In this document: piece after piece, positions 12,251 through 63,488 of the stretch
How the letters are laid out: every line of letters starts with the position of its first letter
Numbering within the stretch: position 1 is the stretch's first letter
From: Nitrosopumilus sp.
Lineage (GTDB): Archaea; Thermoproteota; Nitrososphaeria; Nitrososphaerales; Nitrosopumilaceae
NCBI GenBank assembly: GCA_965197525.1
Contig: OZ240211.1
Coordinates: forward strand, 1,472,001 to 1,536,000
DNA length: 64,000 nt
Direction of reading: 5' to 3'
Translations under genes and position numbers: made by a program
The notes under the pieces: model-generated
What the model saw: the letters and a program-made list of their open reading frames with translations, nothing else
What the model was told of the DNA's origin: nothing
Database searches by the model: none

Positions 12251-13903
12251 ATGGCATCGATTCAACAAGGACCAAATGGGCCTGTACTTGTCCTCAAAGA
12301 GAGCGCGTTACAACAAAAAGGTAAAGATGCTCAACAAAATAACATTGCAGCAGCAAAACTAGTTGCACAACTCGTTAGAAGCAGTCTTGGTCCTAGAGGT
12401 TTAGACAAGATGCTCGTTGATTCCTTGGGCGATGTAACTATTACAAATGATGGCGCTACAATTCTCAAAGAGATTGATGTTCAACATCCTGCAGCCAAGA
12501 TGATGGTTGAAATTTCTAAAACCGTAGACAACGAGGTTGGCGATGGTACTACCTCTTCTGTTATATTTGGCGGTGCTTTGCTAGCTAGAGCAGAAGATCT
12601 TCTCAACAAGGATGTTCACTCTTCAACTATAATTGACGGTTATCAGGCTGCAGCAGACAAAACTCTTGAAATCTATTCTGAATTAGCAAAAAAGATCCAA
12701 CATGACGACCGCGAATCACTATTACAAATCGCTACAACAAGTATGCAATCAAAATTAGTATCTGAGGATAGTGATGCCCTCTCAAAAATTGTTGTTGATG
12801 CTGTTTTAAGCATTGTAGTTAAGAATGGTGATAATTACGTAGTTGATCTAGATAATATCAAAGTAGAGAAAAAATCAGGCGGCTCAATATCTGATACTCA
12901 AATTATTAAAGGAATTGTTCTTGATAAAGAGATTGTTCACAGTGGCATGCCTACAAAGACGGAGAATGCCAAAATTGCATTAATCAACTCTGCATTAGAG
13001 ATTGAAAAGACCGAATTGAGTGCAGAGATTAGAATATCTGACCCAACACAGATGCAGATGTTCCTAGAAGAAGAGAATAGAATGTTAAAGACGATGGTTG
13101 ACAAATTACATGATGTGGGTGCCAATGTCCTGATATGTCAAAAAGGAATTGACGATATCTCTCAGCACTACCTTGCAAAGTATGGTATTATGGCAGTACG
13201 TCGTGTCAAAGAGAGCGATATGACAAAACTTGCAAAGGCTACAGGTGGACGAGTAATAAACAACCTTGATGATCTTACTGAAAATGATCTTGGTCATGCT
13301 GATTTGGCACATCAAAAGAAGGTTGAATCTGACAAGTGGGTTTTCATTGAAGGGTGCAAACATCCGCTATCAGTCACTTTGCTGATTCGTGGTGGTACAC
13401 AGCGACTAATTGATGAAGTTGACCGCTCTATTCATGATTCTTTAATGGTAGTAAAAGACGTTATTGAAACACCTGCAATTGTTGCAGGCGGCGGTGCCCC
13501 AGAAGCATATGTGGCATCTTTGCTCAAAAATTGGGCTGATAGCTTTGATGGAAGAGAGCAGTTGGCAATTAAAAAATATGCTGAAGCATTAGAGACTATA
13601 CCACTTACCATTGCTGAAAATGCCGGAATGGATCCCATTGATACAATGGCTAATCTGCGAGCAAAACAGAACCAAAACCAAAAGTGGACTGGAATTGATG
13701 CTAGAAATATGAAGATTGCAGATATGATGCCACTAGGCGTTATAGAACCAATTACAGTAAAAGAGCAGATAATCAAATCTGCTACAGAGGCTGCATGCAT
13801 GATACTGCGAATTGATGATGTAATTGCAGTATCGGGCGGTCCTGGAGGTGGCGGCGGTCCTGGTGCCGGTGGTATGCCGCCTGGCATGCCTGGAATGGGC
13901 TAG
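12251..13903 (+). CDS. ths: Thermosome (group II chaperonin) subunit, canonical
   Basis: [34 protein letters not shown]-type Gly/Met/Pro tail. Confidence 0.96.
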
Positions 13904-13998: not shown

Positions 13999-14286
13999 GT
14001 AATTGTGTAATTTTTTGACGTGATTTTTAACCTTTAAAAATAATATTTTGATCTTAGGTTATCTGAAACCACGATTACAGTGTTTAATTATGTCCAACGA
14101 CACAGTCGAAGATCACTGGAAGCATAGATATGAAAAATTAGAGCGTCAGATGAAGGAAGAGATGGCCAAGAAGACAAAAAGATAGATAAATTGGAGGAAA
14201 TGGTAAACAGGTTGGAAGGACTGCTTGCCAATGCAGTTAACCAGATAAAGACAATTACACTTGAGATGAGTCGTGCAAAAGAGGCT
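13999..14286 (+). mobile_element. IS66 remnant, left copy (left end plus 5' of transposase)
   Basis: About 94% identical to 23943..24227; encodes MSNDTVEDHWKHRYEKLERQMKEEMAK/DKKIDKLEEMVNRLE coiled coil. Confidence 0.8.
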
Positions 14287-14320: not shown

Positions 14321-16009
14321 CTAATAATACTGATGCATCTGCCTCTGCTCTAACCCCTCTTGCTCAAAGTGGTTATGCGACTTGCCTCCGTCATGATGTG
14401 CATGAACTGTTCCGTCAATATGGCAATGTGTGTTATCAATCAAATCCTTGATAAACACATCATCCACGTTTAGCAGCATGTTGACAGTCTCAACTGCAGT
14501 TATCAGGACTTGCTGTTTTACAACTGCGGTCTCCATAATTTGATGGAGCGACATGTCAGACACTTTTCTTGTAGCAGCGTCTATCCCGCACCACTTGACG
14601 TTGCTATTAGACAGCGTTTGGAGTTGTGTAAATGTGTCAATTACATCCATTCCTATATTTTGGGCCAGTGTCAACGGTATCTGCTCAAGGGCGCTTGCAA
14701 ATCTTTGCATTCCGATCTGCTCCTTGCCGGGAACAGACAATGAGTGATCTTTAATCTCTTGCGCAATCAGCCATTCGACAGAGCCTGCACCGCGTACAAC
14801 AAATGGACTTTGAATAAAATTGCGTAGCACATAAAATGCGTTCAAGACATTCCTGTGGAATTCGTCAAGATAGCGCTTAGAGTTTGCCCTTAACAACAAA
14901 GTTACGGATTTTGGATTACTGTCATTGCTGCTCTCAATGAAGACCATGCTGTCACCCCCGACAGTTCTCTGATAGACATTCTTTGCAAGACCTAACTCAG
15001 CATCCGATATTTCATGTATACTCTTGCATGTTTTCGCGGCAGTTGCTTTTTCCAGCCACCACAGATCATTGTACTTTACACGACGCATCGAGATGATGCC
15101 ATGTTTTGCAAGTTTGGTTTGAACATACTCACTTACGCCCTTTCTTGACACCACTACGTTGGCTCCAGAGTCTACGATGCACCCTACTAGCGCAAGCAGG
15201 TCTGTATCCTCTTGGTCAATGAATGAGCCCATCTGGCTGGGGGAGGTAATCTCTATCTGAGATTCGGTCCTTGTCCTCATGGTCTCCAGTGGATCATTTA
15301 GCAGTAAAATTTTGGCATCAATAATGCTTTTGGGCATCGCAGAGCTGTCTATTGTCTTGTCAATGACTATGCCCCTGACTAGTTCGGTGTCAAGAATGCT
15401 ACCAAGCTTTTCCTCAATCTTTATGTCATCCACACTGATCTTTCCGTTCTGCAGATCAGCTACGCTACACACCGCATCAACGATGGTCTCAACGATTTGT
15501 TCAGGATTATCATGCAAGTCAAATATTGCTTTTCCTCCAAGACACGTAACTAGCAGACGCCTCATCATTTCCCTGTCTGTCCGGTTTGCCACCGTCTTAA
15601 TTTTTTCCAATACATTCAGGGCATATTCAAGGCTTTGCTCGTATGACTTTACAATTGCGGCTACAGGAAATTGCATTTTTAACAGCGTCTCGGCTTGGCC
15701 GATCAGACTACCTATCAGGACAGATGCGGATGTCGTGCCATCTCCAACATGGGTGTCAACGATATTTACAGCGTCCACAACAGACTTGCCTGCGGGATGA
15801 AGAACATCTGTCTTTCTTAAAAATGCACCGCCGTGGCCTGTTATCGTCTCTTCCCCAAGTATGTCAATATACATTTTTTCCATGCCGCGCGGCCCCAGAG
15901 ACGTCTTTATGATATCAGTGACAAGTCTTCCTGACATCAGGTTGTATTTTTGTGAGTCCTGCAGTCCAACACGTGAAATATCACCATCGAGAAGATCAGG
16001 ATATTTCAT
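14321..16009 (-). CDS. Divergent group II chaperonin (thermosome-like) with His-rich C-terminal tail
   Basis: Colinear with ths; GPRGMEKM and GDGTTS kept, but TND is TGH and HD is LN; tail HCHIDGTVHAHHDGGKSHNH. Confidence 0.9.
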   Translation of the reverse strand: MKYPDLLDGDISRVGLQDSQKYNLMSGRLVTDIIKTSLGPRGMEKMYIDILGEETITGHGGAFLRKTDVLHPAGKSVVDAVNIVDTHVGDGTTSASVLIGSLIGQAETLLKMQFPVAAIVKSYEQSLEYALNVLEKIKTVANRTDREMMRRLLVTCLGGKAIFDLHDNPEQIVETIVDAVCSVADLQNGKISVDDIKIEEKLGSILDTELVRGIVIDKTIDSSAMPKSIIDAKILLLNDPLETMRTRTESQIEITSPSQMGSFIDQEDTDLLALVGCIVDSGANVVVSRKGVSEYVQTKLAKHGIISMRRVKYNDLWWLEKATAAKTCKSIHEISDAELGLAKNVYQRTVGGDSMVFIESSNDSNPKSVTLLLRANSKRYLDEFHRNVLNAFYVLRNFIQSPFVVRGAGSVEWLIAQEIKDHSLSVPGKEQIGMQRFASALEQIPLTLAQNIGMDVIDTFTQLQTLSNSNVKWCGIDAATRKVSDMSLHQIMETAVVKQQVLITAVETVNMLLNVDDVFIKDLIDNTHCHIDGTVHAHHDGGKSHNHFEQEGLEQRQMHQYY

Positions 16010-16192: not shown

Positions 16193-17782
16193 TCAAAGTT
16201 TGCTGTCACTCGTTATGACATCGTCAGGTCCCGGAGTGTCGGGCGTGCTAGATGCTGTAAGTCCGGAACCGTCATTCTCCTTGAAATGCTTCAGATCCTC
16301 TCCTGTGATTACGTCCTCTTCTGGAGGCACATAATCCCGTATATCGTGTCTTGCCTTTCCTGGGTACTTGTCTTGTGTCACAAGTGCTACAATCACAAAT
16401 AGCGCAATCCCGATGGCAGGTGCTATCATGGCCTCTATTCCCGCCAGCTCCTCAGGCGTGATAAAGAACATAATCAGCCTGACGGCCGAGCCTGTGATAA
16501 GGCACGCCATGGCAGCAGGCATGTTTGCCTTTTTCCAGAACAGGCCAAACGTTAGCGGTCCAAACGCTCCTGCAAGCACAATGTCAAATGCCAGTACAAG
16601 ATAAATTCCAGGGGCCGGTGCAAGATATCCGATGGTTGTCCCAGCTATCATCATCGGCACAAGTACGATACGGGTAACATTGAGCAGTTTGCGATCGCTC
16701 CAGTTTGCCTGCCCCATCCATCGTCGCCGAATTATTCTTTGCGTCAAGTTTCTTGATATGACACTTGATATTGCCAGCAGCCCTCCACTGGCAGTAGACA
16801 TGGACGCGCCGATAACTCCCATCAGTATGGCCGCCCCTATTGCAAACGGTAAGAACTGTGTGGATAGTATAGGAAGCGCCAGCGCCGGATCGGTGTCACC
16901 TGGCAGGAAATAGAATGCCACTATTCCTAACATACTTGTTGGAATTATCGTAAACATTGTCAGCATGCCTCCCATGAATGCTCCTCTTTGGGCAGTCTTG
17001 GGATTTTTGGCAGAGAATACACGTTCCATAAAGTCAAGTGCAATGATATCCCCTAGCCCCAATGCAAGAAGGGCACCCCAGTTGATTAACGCACCGTTTG
17101 CAATATCATACAGTCCTGAAAGATCTAGGAACTCTGGCGGAGCTGCACTGTATATGATGTCCCATGGAACTTCTGAAAAACCGCCAAAGAAGAATAGGAA
17201 TGCGGCCCAAAACGATCCTATGGCAAGATATACCTGAAATAGATTGGTATAAGCTGATGCAAACAGTCCGCCTGCAATTGTGTAGGCAACTATTACACTA
17301 GCTGCAATCGTTATTCCCCAAAAGTAATCTATGCCAAAAACAACCTGTAGGATAAATCCACTGGCAGCCAGATTACCTGCAACAAGAATGAGAAAGCCGA
17401 TGATCAGGAGAATGCTGGAGATTCCTTCAGCGCCGTTGCCGAATCTTCTGAAATAAAAATCAGGTAGCGTAATCATCGACATCTTGTTCAGGGGCTTGGC
17501 ATAAAATATGGCCACTATAAACAGACACACTCCAAGACCTAGTGGAACAACTGCCCCTGCCCAAAATCCAAACTCAAAGACCAGTGCGATATTTCCAAGC
17601 GACGAGTTCCCGTCTACTGCCTGAGCTGCAAGCATTGTTCCCACCATAAATAAAGGCAGACTTTTTCCTGCAACTATCAGTCTCTTGCCGCTATGTCTGA
17701 CTAGCCTGCCTGCAAATACTCCAACTACAAGTGTAATAATTATAAAAGCTGCAACTGCGATACCAAAACCGTCCAGTTCCAT
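16193..17782 (-). CDS. Sodium:solute symporter (SSS) family transporter
   Basis: About 13 hydrophobic segments; YTIAGGLFASAYT, ERVFSAK, AILMGVIGASMSTASG, GLFWKKAN. Confidence 0.9.
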   Translation of the reverse strand: MELDGFGIAVAAFIIITLVVGVFAGRLVRHSGKRLIVAGKSLPLFMVGTMLAAQAVDGNSSLGNIALVFEFGFWAGAVVPLGLGVCLFIVAIFYAKPLNKMSMITLPDFYFRRFGNGAEGISSILLIIGFLILVAGNLAASGFILQVVFGIDYFWGITIAASVIVAYTIAGGLFASAYTNLFQVYLAIGSFWAAFLFFFGGFSEVPWDIIYSAAPPEFLDLSGLYDIANGALINWGALLALGLGDIIALDFMERVFSAKNPKTAQRGAFMGGMLTMFTIIPTSMLGIVAFYFLPGDTDPALALPILSTQFLPFAIGAAILMGVIGASMSTASGGLLAISSVISRNLTQRIIRRRWMGQANWSDRKLLNVTRIVLVPMMIAGTTIGYLAPAPGIYLVLAFDIVLAGAFGPLTFGLFWKKANMPAAMACLITGSAVRLIMFFITPEELAGIEAMIAPAIGIALFVIVALVTQDKYPGKARHDIRDYVPPEEDVITGEDLKHFKENDGSGLTASSTPDTPGPDDVITSDSKL

Positions 17783-18142
17783 AATTATACATGTTGAAAA
17801 AATTATATAAATATGCGATTTTGACTGTAAAATACGTTTTATACTCTAAAAAACAATACGTATAATACATTTTTTGTTAAAATTCATGTAAATTTTACAA
17901 TATAAAGAAATTTGGATAATGGTTACGACAAGTTCAAACGCGGTTTAATGGCAAAAAAAAATAGATGTGTTTTTGAGAAATGTGTAGTATAATGATGATG
18001 CAATAAGAATGCAGTTTACATATAAGAAAACAATTCGGAGAGATAGCGGCAAAAGAAATTACCAAGCTTGTTTAAAAGATAAGACAGCTATGCTCTGCAA
18101 TCCAATTCAAAATTTTATTAGTTTGGCACTGTTAAAAACGGC

Positions 18143-18358: not shown

Positions 18359-18886
18359 ATGCAAATGCCTGCAAAAGGATATGCCACAATTGGTTTGAAA
18401 CCTGCAATTCTAAAAAAGCTGCACGAAGTGACAGACAAAAGCTATCCTGGAATGTTCCTGCCCAGCACACTAATTATCATGATGAATGAGATCAAGAACG
18501 GGTCATACTCTGTAGAGTTGCACAACATTAGACTGGATTTGTCAGGTCACTACAACACTATAACCATCAGATTGGATGTGCAACAATGGCTAGAAGAAAA
18601 TCACAAGAAGTTGAGTGCAGAGTATGAGGAGAGATACAGGATAAAATCTTTTACAAAATTCGTGAGCTACTTTATTATCAACGCACTTGAGTCAAAGCTT
18701 AACAGTCAAAACCACACCATCAACCTAAAAGAGTCAGACTACGAATGGCTGCAAAAAGAGTACAATAAACACAAGGAAGGCATTACCGACTTTCAAGAGG
18801 TTCCAAGCTTTGACAAGTTTGCGGACATTTACATTAATAATTTGTTTGAGAAGATCAAGGCTGCAAAAAAGATCTTGACGATATAA
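18359..18886 (+). CDS. Hypothetical protein, possibly a tandem ribbon-helix-helix DNA-binding protein
   Basis: Three units TIGLKPAILKKL / TITIRLDVQQWL / TINLKESDYEWL; start may be 18365. Confidence 0.7.
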   Translation: MQMPAKGYATIGLKPAILKKLHEVTDKSYPGMFLPSTLIIMMNEIKNGSYSVELHNIRLDLSGHYNTITIRLDVQQWLEENHKKLSAEYEERYRIKSFTKFVSYFIINALESKLNSQNHTINLKESDYEWLQKEYNKHKEGITDFQEVPSFDKFADIYINNLFEKIKAAKKILTI

Positions 18887-19258: not shown

Positions 19259-19510
19259 TTAGAGTGGAACCATTGTATCAATCAATCGTGCGTTAGTGAC
19301 TTGTCCATCTTTTTCCTGCATCTCAAGGTCTACCGTATATTTTAGAGAGTTCAGCATGAAATTAACCTGAATGTCCCATGCCTCTCTAGTTCCTTTTTCA
19401 GGTACTGCAAACGTCTCGTTGACTCTAAAGTCACTTACGTCTCCATACAATGCATTGATCACTCTTTTGGATTCTCGATATATGTCGTCATTCGTACTTA
19501 CTTTTTGCAT
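19259..19510 (-). CDS. Small hypothetical protein
   Basis: MQKVSTNDDIYRESKRVINALYG..; second ATG (19510) preferred to track start 19531. Confidence 0.7.
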   Translation of the reverse strand: MQKVSTNDDIYRESKRVINALYGDVSDFRVNETFAVPEKGTREAWDIQVNFMLNSLKYTVDLEMQEKDGQVTNARLIDTMVPL

Positions 19511-19879
19511 GGTTATACTACATATACTCAAATATAAAAATATTATAAGATGGAAGATGACTGAAATTTTTCAGTGTCTCCACATGCAAGAGATCAGATA
19601 TATTAATAACGCCTTTGAGGCTGCGATCAGCCAACACACGGCAGACGGTTTTGAGAGTCTTTTTTTTTGCAGTGCGCAGATATAACCTCACTGAGAACTT
19701 TAATGCCTATGCAAGATAATCTTTAACAGTATGACAAGTTTTATCAAAGATTTTTTTTTTTTGAGATTTGGGACAAGGCAAGATCTGCTTTGCATTGTTG
19801 CCGTCATTTATCTGAGAATGTCCACGGTATGCAGGTGTGTGGACAAAATAAATTGTTTGTATATCTCTTGCAGTAAGAT

Positions 19880-21133
19880 CTATAGGCCGCCAAATTTTTT
19901 TGAAAGCGGCACGCGGTTTATTTTTGCCAATTCTGCCTCAGCCTTATATTTATGATAAAGCGCAGTTTGGTTTTCAGGATCAATTGCAAGGGCCTTGTCA
20001 TACCATTTCAGAGACAGATCGTATTTTTCGAGTCGCAAGAACAGTTTTCCTTTGTAGCTTAGTGCGTATACATAATTTGGGTTAATTGCAAGGGCCTTGT
20101 CGCAGTACTCTAGTGCCTCAGTGTATTTTTTAGAATGCTCCAACAGCCATACCATGCTACACAACGCAGTAATATTTTGAGGCTCGATATCAAGTGCACG
20201 CTGACAATAAAATCTTGCAGCAGCAAAGTGCTTCATCGAAAACAGCGATACACCCTTGCTGTAAAGTGCCCGTGTGTTAGTTGAGTCATACTCTAGAACT
20301 TTATCAAAACATTTCGCGGCTTTTTTGTAAAGTCCCGTCCTGTCCAGAACCAGACCCTTGTTTATCCATGCATCAGTGCATCGAGGGTCAATCTCCAAAG
20401 CCCTGTCATAAAATACAAAGATCTCCTTGTTTGAGAATCCAGCAAAATCAAGTATCCATCCTTTGGCCACAAGCGCCTTTGTATTTTTGTTGTTTATCTC
20501 AAGAGCTTTGGTATAGAATTTTATTGCATCCTTGTGTTTTTTCTGTTTTGTGAGTTTTTGTCCTTGTTCATAGAGTTTATCAGATTGCGCGGAATCCTCT
20601 GCGATGGCACGGTTTAAAAACAATATTGATTCAGAACTCCTATCTAGCTTTCCCAATATCATGCTCTTGTTGTAAAGTGCAGAAGCGTTGTTTGGATTAG
20701 ATGACAAAATCCGTTCGGTTATTTCAAGTGCCTTGTCGTATTGGCCCAACTTGTAAAAGCACAGTCCCATCAATATCAACGAATCAGTGTATGTACAGTC
20801 AATATCAAGCGATCTCTGAAAGCAGCGTATGGCCTTGTCGTACTGTTTCGTCTTTTCAAGCGCAACCCCTTTGGCGTACAAGGTATCTATGCTTTTTGGA
20901 TCAGATGACAAAATGTGATCAAAGCATACTATGGCCTTTTGAAACTTTTCCATTTTATTGAGCGTTATGCCTTTGTGGAGATATGCCGTATGGTTGTCAG
21001 GATCAACGGAGATGGATTTGTCAAACTTTGAGACAGCCTTTTTGTAGTCATTGTAATAGATGGCAGTCAATCCCTGATTCAAGAAATACCACGAGTTCTT
21101 TGAATTTTTTAACAGCATGATTACTTGACGCAA
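19880..21133 (-). CDS. Tetratricopeptide-repeat protein (about 11 TPRs)
   Basis: Repeated ~34-aa units A-x3-KG..Y-x2-A-x3-(F/Y)DKAL-x-I(D/N)P. Confidence 0.92.
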   Translation of the reverse strand: MRQVIMLLKNSKNSWYFLNQGLTAIYYNDYKKAVSKFDKSISVDPDNHTAYLHKGITLNKMEKFQKAIVCFDHILSSDPKSIDTLYAKGVALEKTKQYDKAIRCFQRSLDIDCTYTDSLILMGLCFYKLGQYDKALEITERILSSNPNNASALYNKSMILGKLDRSSESILFLNRAIAEDSAQSDKLYEQGQKLTKQKKHKDAIKFYTKALEINNKNTKALVAKGWILDFAGFSNKEIFVFYDRALEIDPRCTDAWINKGLVLDRTGLYKKAAKCFDKVLEYDSTNTRALYSKGVSLFSMKHFAAARFYCQRALDIEPQNITALCSMVWLLEHSKKYTEALEYCDKALAINPNYVYALSYKGKLFLRLEKYDLSLKWYDKALAIDPENQTALYHKYKAEAELAKINRVPLSKKFGGL

Positions 21134-21535: not shown

Positions 21536-22294
21536 CTAGTTCAATAAAAACAGGTCGGATTTCAGCCCAACTGTAAATATGATGTTTATTCCGACAACCA
21601 GCGTTACACCAGCTATGGCGTATCTGACATACTTGGCGGCAAGATGAATTTTTGGCAGCAATAACATAAATGAGATTCCCAAAACACCACTGGCAAGGGA
21701 CATGCCAACTATGCTGCCAATACCAAACAGGACTAGGAAGTAAACCACAATGTCAAAACTACCCATTGTGGATGCAGCAAGCGCTACAATACTGCCGCTT
21801 CCTGCAAGGCCGTGAATGCAACCTATTATGTATGACTTGTGGCCGTGCTTGTGATCCGTATTGTGCGTGTGGGGATGGGTGTGAGAGATTCCGTTTGGAT
21901 GCTTGTGTGAATGTGTATGTTTTTGCCTTAGAATGCTTTTGTTAGCGGCTGTCATAACCCCCAAAAATATCAGCATAGAACCCACTATAACTTCCGCACT
22001 CAAAAAGAAAGTGTCAGATATACTCAATGAGAGACCTGCAATCAGCAGGCCGATCAATACGATGCTGGATGTATGCCCCATTCCCCACAGCATGCCTTTG
22101 AAGGAAGAGAAGACTGTCAGGATTTTTAGATTCGTTTTTTTCGAGGTACGGTTGTTGTTATCGTTTAGAACCTGTGTAGAGACCGCACTGATATGATCAG
22201 GCTCAAAAGCATGTACCAGTCCGATCACAAGACCTGCAACGAGTATCAAGAAAGGATTGTTTGCTTGTAATATTTCAATCAACACATCAATCAT
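21536..22294 (-). CDS. NiCoT/UreH-like nickel-cobalt transport or urease-accessory membrane protein
   Basis: HAFEPDH (H-x4-DH) signature, WGMGHT, loop with 11 His, HGLAGS. Confidence 0.85.
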   Translation of the reverse strand: MIDVLIEILQANNPFLILVAGLVIGLVHAFEPDHISAVSTQVLNDNNNRTSKKTNLKILTVFSSFKGMLWGMGHTSSIVLIGLLIAGLSLSISDTFFLSAEVIVGSMLIFLGVMTAANKSILRQKHTHSHKHPNGISHTHPHTHNTDHKHGHKSYIIGCIHGLAGSGSIVALAASTMGSFDIVVYFLVLFGIGSIVGMSLASGVLGISFMLLLPKIHLAAKYVRYAIAGVTLVVGINIIFTVGLKSDLFLLN

Positions 22295-22767
22295 TACAAG
22301 GTACCCCCGGACGGCGGTTCTGATTGAATGAAGGGATATTCGTTGATATGGATGGGTGCTGTGACCAAAATTGTCTTGACATGATCGTTGTAATGAGCAT
22401 CAATATTGTTGCCATCACCATCACCATCACCATCATCAGATACAGCACCTGCATCATTTGCAATAATCGTAAAGGTCAGCTCCCTTAGGCTCTCAGGAAC
22501 GCCAATCATGACTTGATGCGGCAACAGAATCTTTGGAATATGGTTTTGGATTTCATCGACTGCCTTGCCTTCATTCAGTGAGAGTATAACATATGCAACA
22601 AACAGTTCCAAGACTTGGTCTACGTTTAGCCTCATATTATTTAGAAGACTGTCTTTGATCTGCTGAACAGATGCTAGAAATATCGATTCATCAGACGCGT
22701 CATAATGAAATACCCTGATAAACGACTCGGTGTCCGGATCTCCTTGTACGGAGACTTTGATCTCCAT
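22294..22767 (-). CDS. Urease gamma-subunit-like protein
   Basis: RLNVDQ..NEGKAVDEI..ILLPHQVMIGVPESL..ILVTAPI follows the UreA pattern; 1-nt stop/start overlaps on both sides. Confidence 0.7.
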   Translation of the reverse strand: MEIKVSVQGDPDTESFIRVFHYDASDESIFLASVQQIKDSLLNNMRLNVDQVLELFVAYVILSLNEGKAVDEIQNHIPKILLPHQVMIGVPESLRELTFTIIANDAGAVSDDGDGDGDGNNIDAHYNDHVKTILVTAPIHINEYPFIQSEPPSGGTL

Positions 22768-23882
22768 TAACTTCTCTCAGGTATTTTAGAGGTCGAATTA
22801 CCAAAACTGTATGTGTTTCCAGTTCCCCGATAATCGTTAGGCCTTACCGGATCTCCTCCATCAAGCCCTCGCTTTGTTAGTGATAATCCAGCTAAAAGCT
22901 CTATAACCAGTCTTTGTCCCAGTCCAGATGTAATGCCTCCATTGTAAGAACTGTTATCGCTTACGTCGTATGCAGGTGAGATCTCTACTAGATCCATTGC
23001 AAATCTGTCAGGATCAAATGACTTTGATAGCAGTCGTATCATTCTAATCCCTTCCCTTGATGTAAGGCCGTTTGGCTCAGGCTCGCCGGTACCTGGTGCA
23101 TAAGCAGGATCAAAAGAGTCGATATCCCAACTAAGGTACACTGCATCAGTCCCGTCATTTGCCCTGTCTGCTATCTCTTTGGCAATGTAATCAATTCCCA
23201 GTTCTTCAACATCAAGCATTGTAAACCATTGAAAGTCTTGATCCGCCATCCATTTGTACAGATCACGGCCAGGCCAGTATCCTCTTGGACCCACTAGAGA
23301 GTAGTTTCTTCCCTTCAGACAGCCCATTTCCATTATTCTTCTGATATGTGCACCATGGTCGTATTTGAAACCTGTCAGGCCTTGGGGGGCACAATCTGCG
23401 TGGGTATCAAAGTGAATCATACCAATGTTCTTGTATTTTTTTGCAAAAGCCCGAACATTTGCATAAGTAATAGAATGATCCCCTCCAAGCATTACAGGAA
23501 TGCCATCTGCCTCTAACACCTCTTTGACCTTCAGGGTCATTCTTTTGTGCGACTCTATAACATCGCCTGGCGAGACTATGACATCACCATAGTCAACTGT
23601 TCTGAAAGTGCCAAACGGATCTGCACCCGTCTCGATATTGAACCTCTCAAATGGTGGGGAGGGCACAGTTGATGCCGCCCTTATTGCCCTTGGACCGTAT
23701 CGCGCACCAGGACGAATGGTTGTGCCAAAATCAAATGGTTCTCCGATAATTGCAACATCAGGTTTTGCCTGTAGTAACTCTTTGTGGTTTTTTATCAATG
23801 GAAGATGCAAAAATGTATTAATTCCTACAAATGGTGCAACATCTGCACCCTGAAAATCCTCACCGTAAAATTCTGCACCCAT
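22767..23882 (-). CDS. Ureohydrolase (agmatinase/guanidino-hydrolase family), substrate unknown
   Basis: RPGARYGP, GGDHS, DTHAD, HG, DIDSFDP, PGTG; all binuclear metal ligands present. Confidence 0.92.
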   Translation of the reverse strand: MGAEFYGEDFQGADVAPFVGINTFLHLPLIKNHKELLQAKPDVAIIGEPFDFGTTIRPGARYGPRAIRAASTVPSPPFERFNIETGADPFGTFRTVDYGDVIVSPGDVIESHKRMTLKVKEVLEADGIPVMLGGDHSITYANVRAFAKKYKNIGMIHFDTHADCAPQGLTGFKYDHGAHIRRIMEMGCLKGRNYSLVGPRGYWPGRDLYKWMADQDFQWFTMLDVEELGIDYIAKEIADRANDGTDAVYLSWDIDSFDPAYAPGTGEPEPNGLTSREGIRMIRLLSKSFDPDRFAMDLVEISPAYDVSDNSSYNGGITSGLGQRLVIELLAGLSLTKRGLDGGDPVRPNDYRGTGNTYSFGNSTSKIPERS

Positions 23883-23942
23883 TTTAACAGAGATTGTAAG
23901 CTCTTTTGATTATTAAGTATTGCATGTAAAATACGCATTTTT

Positions 23943-24560
23943 GTAATTGCATAGTTTTTTGAAGTGATTTTTAACCTTAAATAATATTTTGATCTTAGGT
24001 TATCTGAAACCACGATTACAGTGTTTAATTATGTCCAACGACTCAACCGAAGATCATTGGAAGCATAGATATGAAAAATTAGAGCGTCAGATAAAGGAAG
24101 AGATGGCCAAGAAGACAAAAAGATAGATAAATTGTAGGAAATGGTAAACAAGTTGGAAGGACTGCTTACCAATGCAGTTAACCAGATAAAGACAATTACA
24201 CTTTAGATGAATAGTGCAAAAGAGGCTTCATTCTTGCCCTCATCAACAGGCTCAAAGGAGAGAAATACAAGCATTGCAACAGGATGCTCAAGAGGATCAG
24301 AAGAGAGAAAGGCCACCTGTTTACGTTACTTGAGGTTGAAAGAATGAGTGACATGACAACTCTGTAGAGAGGGAGAGGGGGCATCAGACAGTGCGTCATA
24401 CTGCGCAATAACAGCTATGGGAGCAGGTCCGAAGAATGGGCATCGGCCATAGTAGTGTTGATGAGTGTAAAACAAACCTGCAAGGCAAAGAACAATAATT
24501 TGTTCGATGATGTAATGCGCATGAATTTGTTCAAAACGTGTCAAAAAACTACCTAGTTGC
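23943..24560 (+). mobile_element. Internally deleted IS66 (618 bp) retaining both ends
   Basis: 5' part as the left copy; then frameshifted transposase C-terminus RMLKRIRREKGHLFT..DNSVER..IRQCVILRNNSYGSRSEE..LMSVKQTCK (NNxAERxLR..GxRS..SxxxTC pattern). Confidence 0.88.
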
Positions 24561-63398: not shown

Positions 63399-63488
63399 TA
63401 GCGGGGAGTAGATTTGAACTACTGATTTGCGGGTTATGAGCCCGCCGGGATGACTTTGCCCTAAATAGTCTGACTTCCCCACCCCGCT
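63399..63488 (-). tRNA. Initiator tRNA-Met(CAT) with a 15-nt D-loop intron
   Basis: AGCGGGG/CCCCGCT acceptor stem with A1-U72, GGG/CCC anticodon stem, CTCATAA loop, TTCAAAT T-loop; removing 63455..63469 gives a regular 75-nt cloverleaf. Confidence 0.92.

Follow-up and report, generated by a model that had tools for sequence, protein, structure and literature searches.

The segment of DNA analysed here, which we refer to as the window, comprises 64,000 nt of Nitrosopumilus sp. (GCA_965197525.1, contig OZ240211.1, positions 1,472,001-1,536,000, forward strand), and it contains a compact operon encoding an arginase-family ureohydrolase, a small protein resembling the urease gamma subunit UreA, and a putative nickel/cobalt transporter. 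The 2.21-Mb host genome is a single contig that encodes an archaeal AmoA, and the host is therefore an ammonia-oxidising archaeon (AOA). All three genes lie on the minus strand. The first (22767-23882) encodes a 371-aa Glu-type ureohydrolase with the arginase fold (PF00491) and a conserved, AOA-specific C-terminal tail; the second (22294-22767) encodes a 157-aa UreA-like protein with a predicted urease-gamma fold and an extra N-terminal beta-hairpin; and the third (21536-22294) encodes a 252-aa predicted Ni/Co transporter of the NicO superfamily (PF03824), with about six transmembrane (TM) segments, the motif HAFEPDH in TM1 and a cytoplasmic loop containing 11 histidines.

An earlier note on this DNA, made from the letters alone, had described three genes overlapping by single bases, and the open reading frames bear this out: both junctions read TAATG, with stop and start codons sharing one base at 22767 and at 22294. 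The TATA-like sequence that it placed about 30 nt before the first ATG is also present (CTTAATAA, 23910-23917, minus strand), 28-35 nt upstream of the hydrolase ATG at 23882, and just 5' of it is an operator-like element, CGTATTTTACA (23925-23935, minus strand), a GTA-N3-TAC palindrome that is conserved across AOA. Of 54 related loci, 48 have a spacing of -4, -1 or 0 nt between the hydrolase and the small gene, and the position of the TATA box is kept in 17 aligned upstream regions drawn from two AOA families; only in this genome do the small gene and the NicO gene overlap by one base, relatives having a gap of about 15-110 nt. Because the junction and the TATA box are conserved across AOA, the arrangement exceeds what chance would produce, and the view that the three genes form one coupled operon is supported. 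An Rfam scan of the window found no riboswitch, guanidine riboswitches included; its lone match is a partial tRNA at 63407-63463 on the minus strand (34.2 bits, model positions 8-63).

The hydrolase matches PF00491 strongly (E 4e-80, 269.6 bits, cut-off 22). Ligand and catalytic residues were assigned from alignments to 3NIO, 7ESR and 9FEK, and in an alignment of 44 homologues the metal ligands H136, D159, H161, D163, D253 and D255 are all invariant, as had been claimed from the single sequence, together with the catalytic H176 and the guanidinium-binding E300. The motifs that had been singled out as unusual, DHGAH (D175-H176-G177-A178), GTGEPEPNG (G264-G272) and a GPRGYWP loop, are present and likewise invariant in the 44 sequences. 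All AOA homologues combine GTGEPEPNG with YDHGAH, and the haloarchaeal homologues (~50% identity) and one homologue from an Aquificaceae metagenome-assembled genome (MAG) carry GTGEPEPGG, such that every homologue from these three groups has GTGEPEP[NG]G. When GTDB species genomes were scanned for the motif PGTGEPEPGG, no further true members of this clade emerged; five bacterial matches (Acidobacteriota, Actinomycetota, Burkholderiales, Pseudomonas and Streptomyces) proved to be chance DNA matches without a homologous protein.

Public sources label close homologues of the hydrolase 'agmatinase', and a gene clustered with an SSS-family transporter gene has been called agmatinase (SpeB) in the literature (PMC11131427), which would make the enzyme a housekeeping agmatinase of polyamine synthesis. 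We regard this as very improbable, and the earlier note had likewise set the hydrolase apart from SpeB. Neither NCBIfam agmatinase cut-off is reached (154.5 against 174.3 for TIGR01230, and 204.6 against 302 for PRK02190), and a substrate-pocket Thr is replaced by Glu. Of the 401 genomes sampled in the class, 118 have the hydrolase and nearly all of these are urease-positive, a distribution unlike that of a housekeeping gene. Its best sequence matches in the PDB are Pseudomonas aeruginosa guanidinobutyrase (174.7 bits), Synechocystis GdmH (169.9) and Nitrospira inopinata guanidinase (164.6), and the agmatinases there score 98-124 bits. A Foldseek search with the AF2 model places N. inopinata guanidinase, GdmH and metformin hydrolase at the top, with small margins; the model has a mean pLDDT of 75 with active-site loops below 50, and it served for ranking folds, not for analysis of the pocket.

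Phylogeny leads to the same conclusion. In a maximum-likelihood tree of 56 sequences that includes GdmH-like (PGTGWPEPGG) and GbuA-like (WAPGTGTPEIGG) proteins, E. coli SpeB and two paralogues from the host genome, the Glu-type clade of AOA, haloarchaea and the one Aquificaceae MAG is monophyletic (99% SH-aLRT) and falls outside all four of these, the reference sets being orthologues picked by motif alone and not the characterised enzymes themselves. Grouping inside SpeB, the outcome that the earlier note had named as contrary to its proposal, is thus not what is observed. The W-signature GdmH-like clade (15 sequences, 100% support) excludes the hydrolase, and the sister of the Glu-type clade is an uncharacterised GTGTPEPGG group with weak support (81%). 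The two paralogues, the other arginase-family genes of this genome, are both closest to the archaeal agmatinase 3PZL and sit on long branches, leaving the deep order of the tree unsure. Judged from its sequence, then, the hydrolase represents a distinct Glu-type clade of ureohydrolases with a binuclear metal site, and it resembles GdmH without being a member of the GdmH family. Its identity between loci is high (78-81%), as compared with 75-76% for UreC in the same loci; since UreC is about equally conserved, strong constraint suffices to explain these values and a recent transfer among AOA is not needed.

Guanidinobutyrase being the single best PDB sequence match, a different kind of enzyme has to be considered, namely a Mn-dependent ureohydrolase acting on a larger guanidino compound (agmatine, guanidino acids, taurocyamine or methylated guanidines), with the urea passing to urease and with the NicO protein, a His-tailed chaperonin encoded nearby and the UreA-like protein all serving urease maturation and not the hydrolase. 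We consider this unlikely, though a serious competitor, and the evidence that bears on it is spread across the genes that surround the hydrolase.

The UreA-like protein is a distant relative of its namesake by sequence, scoring 19.2 bits against PF00547 (cut-off 23.9) and 20.8-20.9 bits against NCBIfam urease-gamma models (cut-offs 82-123). With its AF2 model (pLDDT 85) as the query, the top 17 Foldseek matches in the PDB are all urease gamma chains or domains (probability 0.99-1.00), with TM scores, normalised to target length, of 0.74-0.79 for stand-alone gamma chains, so that the predicted structure agrees with the UreA-like identity first proposed for the middle gene. The protein is 26% identical to the genome's own UreA and has an acidic DGDGDG insertion in this lineage, and its homologues carry the public name 'urease subunit gamma'. 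There is no conserved His or Cys in the homologue alignment, which makes a metal-binding role of its own unlikely. The small gene was detected in 108 of the 401 sampled genomes of the class, a few of these hits being weak matches to true ureA, and it evolves quickly, with 31-66% identity where the hydrolase keeps 79-95%.

Derivation from UreA is what a factor for urease maturation might show, as the Mn-dependent proposal has it, but the position of the gene speaks against that role: it is directly behind the hydrolase gene in 30 of 30 loci, usually overlapping it, and is never found with ureB or ureC, the genomes having a separate true ureA. This tight coupling argues for a physical partnership with the hydrolase. 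In one sister family the hydrolase gene lies a short way upstream of a true ureABC, which suggests that the small gene arose by duplication of ureA. A prediction of the complex between the hydrolase and the UreA-like protein gave a score of 0.00 and weighs neither for nor against binding, and we give such binding an even chance.

The third gene product passes the PF03824 cut-off marginally (28.7 bits against 27.7) and, at 15.3 bits, falls well short of the 195 bits that the NCBIfam RcnA model requires. The motif HAFEPDH, an instance of HX4DH, which we take to be the signature of NiCoT transporters, is kept in all but one of 32 orthologues from related loci, and the central loop has 11-13 histidines in all 32, with 11 here. 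A crude hydropathy scan indicates about six hydrophobic segments, as against the eight TM segments of classical NiCoT proteins such as HoxN and NixA (PMC2667541), and the transporter is thus better called UreH/RcnA-like within the NicO superfamily. Of the earlier description of an '11-His NiCoT' protein, the 11-His loop therefore stands and the classical eight-TM assignment does not. A second, degraded NicO copy lies elsewhere in the genome (C1:2061502-2062291), broken into three fragments (60-75% identity) and carrying an in-frame TAG as well as a frame break.

The three genes do not stand alone. Five more genes complete a cluster of eight, comprising a thermosome paralogue (14321-16009, minus strand, PF00118) with a His-rich C-terminal tail (…HCHIDGTVHAHHDGGKSHNH…); a 529-aa SSS-family transporter (16193-17782, minus strand, PF00474), the candidate substrate importer; a conserved 175-aa protein (18359-18886, plus strand); a conserved 90-aa protein (19259-19531, minus strand); and a 417-aa TPR-repeat protein (19880-21133, minus strand) recognised by TPR families and usually part of the cluster. 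These five constitute a set that travels with the hydrolase across AOA loci. Homologues of the 175-aa protein (43-65% identity) lie beside the SSS gene in many AOA loci, and the 90-aa and TPR proteins are syntenic in most, the latter at 25-66% identity; the 175-aa and 90-aa proteins match no Pfam or NCBIfam family. Where the canonical thermosome copy (12251-13903) ends in a tail rich in Gly and Met, that of the paralogue is His-rich (…HCHIDGTVHAHHDGGKSHNHFEQE…).

Direct repeats of about 288 nt with 94% identity (13999-14286 and 23943-24227) bracket the eight-gene cluster, and ureABC lies 1.07 Mb away in this genome, both of which would fit an arrangement that is the incidental cargo of a mobile element, lacking functional coupling. 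Synteny that extends across two AOA families and dozens of genera, with junctions and promoter elements conserved, makes this explanation extremely improbable. The only further copy of the repeat is partial (~146 nt, 87%), at genome position 86.4 kb, and the repeats were looked for in the loci of relatives and not found there. The flanking genes, encoding the canonical thermosome and a ROK kinase, are adjacent in one relative (L120), suggesting that the cluster may have been inserted or rearranged here.

In all 12 relatives for which larger flanks were fetched, the cluster is 0.03-8 kb from ureABC. The operon thus belongs to a conserved AOA urease island, a context that the first reading of the window had overlooked. 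Within the family to which the host belongs (223 genomes sampled, leaving out the host genome, and tallied by hand), 71 of the 72 genomes with the hydrolase have ureC and one lacks it, as compared with 32 with ureC and 119 without among the 151 genomes that lack the hydrolase; the sole hydrolase-positive genome without ureC is a 91%-complete MAG. Within the genus, ureC is present in 19 of 20 hydrolase-positive and 19 of 63 hydrolase-negative genomes. As these genomes are related and not independent, the co-occurrence is a pattern and not a statistical test. The tallies include the unpublished genomes G282 and G364 (G422 for NicO), and removing these shifts the counts by 1-2 with the same conclusions. 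The linkage extends beyond AOA, with ureABC 2 kb from the hydrolase gene on a Natronorubrum plasmid. In the Aquificaceae MAG the segment L075:5198-11826 encodes ureA, the Glu-type hydrolase, a GimABC-like ABC importer, a 121-aa uncharacterised protein, ureG and ureD, with ureC a few kb away on the same contig, so that the ureohydrolase is embedded in a bacterial urease operon.

In the host genome the urease genes are scattered over at least three sites, with ureF and ureG at about 258 kb. A TnpB/Cas12f-like gene (PF07282, RuvC) at C1:428071-429309 (L129:12071-13309, plus strand) adjoins ureA of the displaced ureABC-SSS operon.

A urease island of this kind is also compatible with the proposal of an Mn enzyme, ureABC being part of the island in relatives, and the chaperonin bears on the choice. 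An Hsp60 homologue and an 'SSS-type urea transporter' have been described in AOA urease loci, where the chaperonin was interpreted as a stabiliser of urease and the Hsp60 homologue was stated to be absent from Nitrosopumilales (PMC5797428). Contrary to that statement, the homologue (thermosome) is present in the host's family, and the His-tailed paralogue is syntenic with the hydrolase in AOA loci. Of five urease-positive genomes of the same genus, the two hydrolase-positive ones have the paralogue and the three hydrolase-negative ones lack it, such that in these five it follows the hydrolase and not urease.

The earlier note had argued from the coupled transporter that the hydrolase uses Ni or Co. 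The coupling itself holds, and in about 26 of 30 loci the NicO gene is directly downstream; the conclusion as to the metal is confounded, since the operon abuts ureABC in relatives and a nickel permease could serve urease instead. Our inference is that the island as a whole receives its Ni (or Co) through the NicO-type protein. Several lines favour nickel in the hydrolase nonetheless: the translational coupling of NicO in this genome, the distribution of the His-tailed thermosome just described, a NicO homologue behind one bacterial GdmH-like gene, and the presence of Ni chaperones and a Ni importer in the operons of GdmH, MefH and DmgH (PMC11399263). In addition, the hydrolases of L089 (a Nitrosomirales MAG) and L093 (a MAG related to it) have C-terminal tails with 11-12 histidines, and no UreA-like gene was found at these two loci; a His-rich tail fused to the hydrolase itself is difficult to reconcile with accessory proteins that serve urease maturation only. 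These hydrolases (L089:5893-7146 and L093:5998-7251) are 417 aa long, their extensions contain …HSHSHGHHGHNH…, and NicO lies downstream of each. Taken together, we lean slightly towards a Ni-dependent hydrolase.

That the hydrolase releases urea, and that this urea feeds urease, we hold with good confidence. What it acts upon is suggested by three independent clues from genomic context, all of which point to guanidine or a closely similar compound. The first is the importer of the Aquificaceae MAG, where the hydrolase gene is followed by an ABC system of the NitT/TauT type. Its binding protein is 34-39% identical to those beside W-type GdmH-like genes (50 of 120 loci) and retains 51 of the 78 most conserved columns, including W32, W35, D107, W180 and D205. 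By a rough numbering offset only, these five correspond to W59, W62, D135, F205 and D233 of GimA, which contact guanidine in GimABC, an importer for which guanidine transport has been shown experimentally (PMC12704784).

The second clue is the SSS gene, which is syntenic with the hydrolase in AOA and haloarchaea, the haloarchaeal hydrolase being paired with an SSS gene (34-39% identity) and an AbrB/PhoU-type regulator. Three bacterial lineages, represented by Spirulina, an Actinomycetota MAG and a Mycobacterium MAG, have an SSS gene beside a W-type GdmH-like gene. The 529-aa protein shares 39-42% identity with the products of these bacterial SSS genes, and the 529-aa gene is the only one in the host genome that they match; the identity of the 529-aa protein to the host's 676-aa SSS protein, encoded beside ureC, is 23%. 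In Spirulina subsalsa CS-330 (L218:2723-7345) a gdmH-like gene with the W signature, a GST gene, hypA, hypB and the SSS gene follow one another on one strand. The SSS gene occupies the position that GimABC has in Synechocystis, a hint that bacteria have a guanidine importer of the SSS type that is yet to be described. That relatives of the transporters of this module adjoin GdmH-like genes, and not genes for guanidino-acid enzymes, also counts against an Mn enzyme with a larger substrate.

The third clue is regulatory. The promoters of the hydrolase and SSS genes share CGTATTTTACA just upstream of their TATA boxes, the second copy (17826-17836, minus strand) being an identical 11-mer upstream of the SSS gene. 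Four copies exist in the genome, where 2.4 would be expected, and the other two are intragenic; the count alone is not significant, and the weight of the element comes from its position and its conservation in relatives. Two AOA families conserve GTA-N3-TAC ahead of the hydrolase gene, and same-genus relatives have it ahead of the SSS gene as well, as CGTACTATAC at the same place.

The residues of the active site offer a further comparison. The guanidine specificity of GdmH has been ascribed to Thr97 and Trp305 (PMC11410670), of which the first is kept in the hydrolase as T55, with T54-T55 invariant and aligned to the 'GTT' of GdmH. Weighing residues and context together, we conclude that the hydrolase probably acts on guanidine or on some very small guanidino compound as its substrate, and the chance that it is guanidine itself we put just short of even.

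As a whole, we think it about equally probable as not that the operon is the core of an AOA urea-utilisation island with a guanidine-type substrate, and under that proposal the parts would work together as follows. The SSS transporter (16193-17782), co-regulated with the hydrolase, would import the substrate, and the hydrolase would cleave it, be it free guanidine or some very small guanidino compound, to urea and ammonium or an amine. Urease would split the released urea to ammonia, which the AOA would oxidise for energy. The NicO-type protein would deliver Ni (or Co), the hydrolase probably being a Ni enzyme like GdmH, and the UreA-derived protein, made in step with the hydrolase by way of the overlapping stop and start codons, would be a non-catalytic partner; it could act as a structural subunit, as a maturation adaptor or as a link to urease, and would be dispensable in some lineages.

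A number of observations weigh against this interpretation. The position of the pocket-closing Trp305/Trp313 of GdmH and the guanidinase is an invariant glutamate, E267, in AOA, haloarchaea and the Aquificaceae MAG; as Trp305 is not conserved, the hydrolase falls outside the GdmH family by that test and may take another substrate, and absence of the Trp also counts in favour of an Mn enzyme with a larger substrate. A carboxylate facing the third guanidinium nitrogen could, we infer, replace the cation-pi contact of the Trp. By sequence, guanidinobutyrase scores as well as GdmH does. The evidence from guanidine transporters is drawn from five bacterial loci and a single Aquificaceae MAG. NicO and ureC are 3.5-4 kb apart in two genomes, G108, which lacks the hydrolase, and G161, which has no UreA-like gene and whose case we give irrespective of its hydrolase status; the former in particular would suit a transporter dedicated to urease. 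NicO homologues also occur in urease-negative genomes, and NicO is mostly non-adjacent in Nitrososphaeraceae and absent from the haloarchaeal loci. Finally, the UreA-like gene is missing in G008 and G100, where NicO follows the hydrolase directly with no small gene between them, in L089 and L093, in haloarchaea and in most of a related sister family, and since several hydrolase loci are without it we view it as accessory and not essential.

The most specific form of the guanidine proposal, which we advance tentatively and consider doubtful as a complete package, is that AOA have a second, independently specialised type of guanidine hydrolase with Glu in place of Trp. It would be Ni-dependent, would be matured or stabilised by a UreA-derived subunit and a dedicated His-tailed group II chaperonin replacing HypA and HypB, and would receive its substrate from an SSS guanidine symporter for which the present annotation is 'urea transporter'.

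In soils and oceans, AOA belong to the most abundant nitrifiers, and the substrates recognised for them are ammonia and urea, with cyanate added in one strain. In 2024 a study in Nature described comammox Nitrospira growing on guanidine and reported AOA to lack genes for its degradation (PMC11410670), and a 2025 survey of AOA MAGs likewise reported none (PMC12625717). Our literature search found no paper on the Glu-type clade, on its coupling to NicO or on the UreA-like partner. We regard the module as a concrete candidate for a guanidine pathway in AOA, and hence for a source of nitrogen and energy not yet credited to these nitrifiers. If the proposal is correct, guanidine could supply energy and nitrogen to roughly one AOA species in three and to half of the sampled soil Nitrososphaeraceae, in contradiction to the published view that AOA are without genes for its degradation. 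The module also raises the questions of how a Ni (or Mn) ureohydrolase is matured without HypA and HypB, what role a stand-alone UreA paralogue plays, and whether the 'SSS-type urea transporter' of AOA urease loci may have been mis-assigned.

Each component has relatives among known systems. The transporter is most like the UreH/RcnA-type members of the NicO superfamily, with which it has in common about six TM segments, H-x4-D-H in TM1, a central loop rich in His and a location next to Ni enzymes (for the UreH context, PMC2667541); it is far below the RcnA model, and its metal and direction of transport are predictions. The small protein shares with UreA (PF00547) its predicted fold, the motifs L-[KR]-[IL]-N-x-x-E and VM-x-GVPE and a C-terminal P-I, and it differs in its low identity (~26%), its score below the Pfam cut-off, the extra N-terminal hairpin and its place behind a ureohydrolase.

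Among the enzymes, GbuA and GpuA of P. aeruginosa (3NIO, 3NIP) are similar in hydrolysing guanidino compounds with release of urea, and GbuA is the best sequence match at 174.7 bits. They are, however, short forms of about 319 aa with GTGTPEIGG where the hydrolase has GTGEPEPNG, they belong to a separate clade, and the loci we have seen have no urease or Ni-transporter context. Both are generally regarded as Mn enzymes. MefH and DmgH (8SNF, 8RYI) are Ni ureohydrolases that are encoded with Ni chaperones, HupE for Ni uptake and genes of urea metabolism (PMC11399263), and they need a second, non-catalytic protein for activity; that partner is a degenerate ureohydrolase paralogue and not a UreA-like protein, and the sequence similarity to the hydrolase is lower, at about 117-122 bits.

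The closest parallels overall are GdmH of Synechocystis (Sll1077; 7ESR, 7OI1) and the N. inopinata guanidinase (9FEK). The hydrolase differs from them in its moderate identity (~32-37%), its separate clade and the replacement of Trp305/Trp313 by E267, and its locus is without HypA/HypB chaperones and without a guanidine riboswitch, having instead the UreA-like protein, the His-tailed thermosome and NicO. It has in common with them the arginase fold in its longer form of about 370-390 aa, identical metal ligands, and the equivalents of Thr97, His222 and Glu344, and they are its top structural and near-top sequence matches. The logic of the module is also similar, in that a hydrolase is combined with an importer, a supply of Ni and urease, and the importers themselves are drawn from the same SSS and GimABC-like families.

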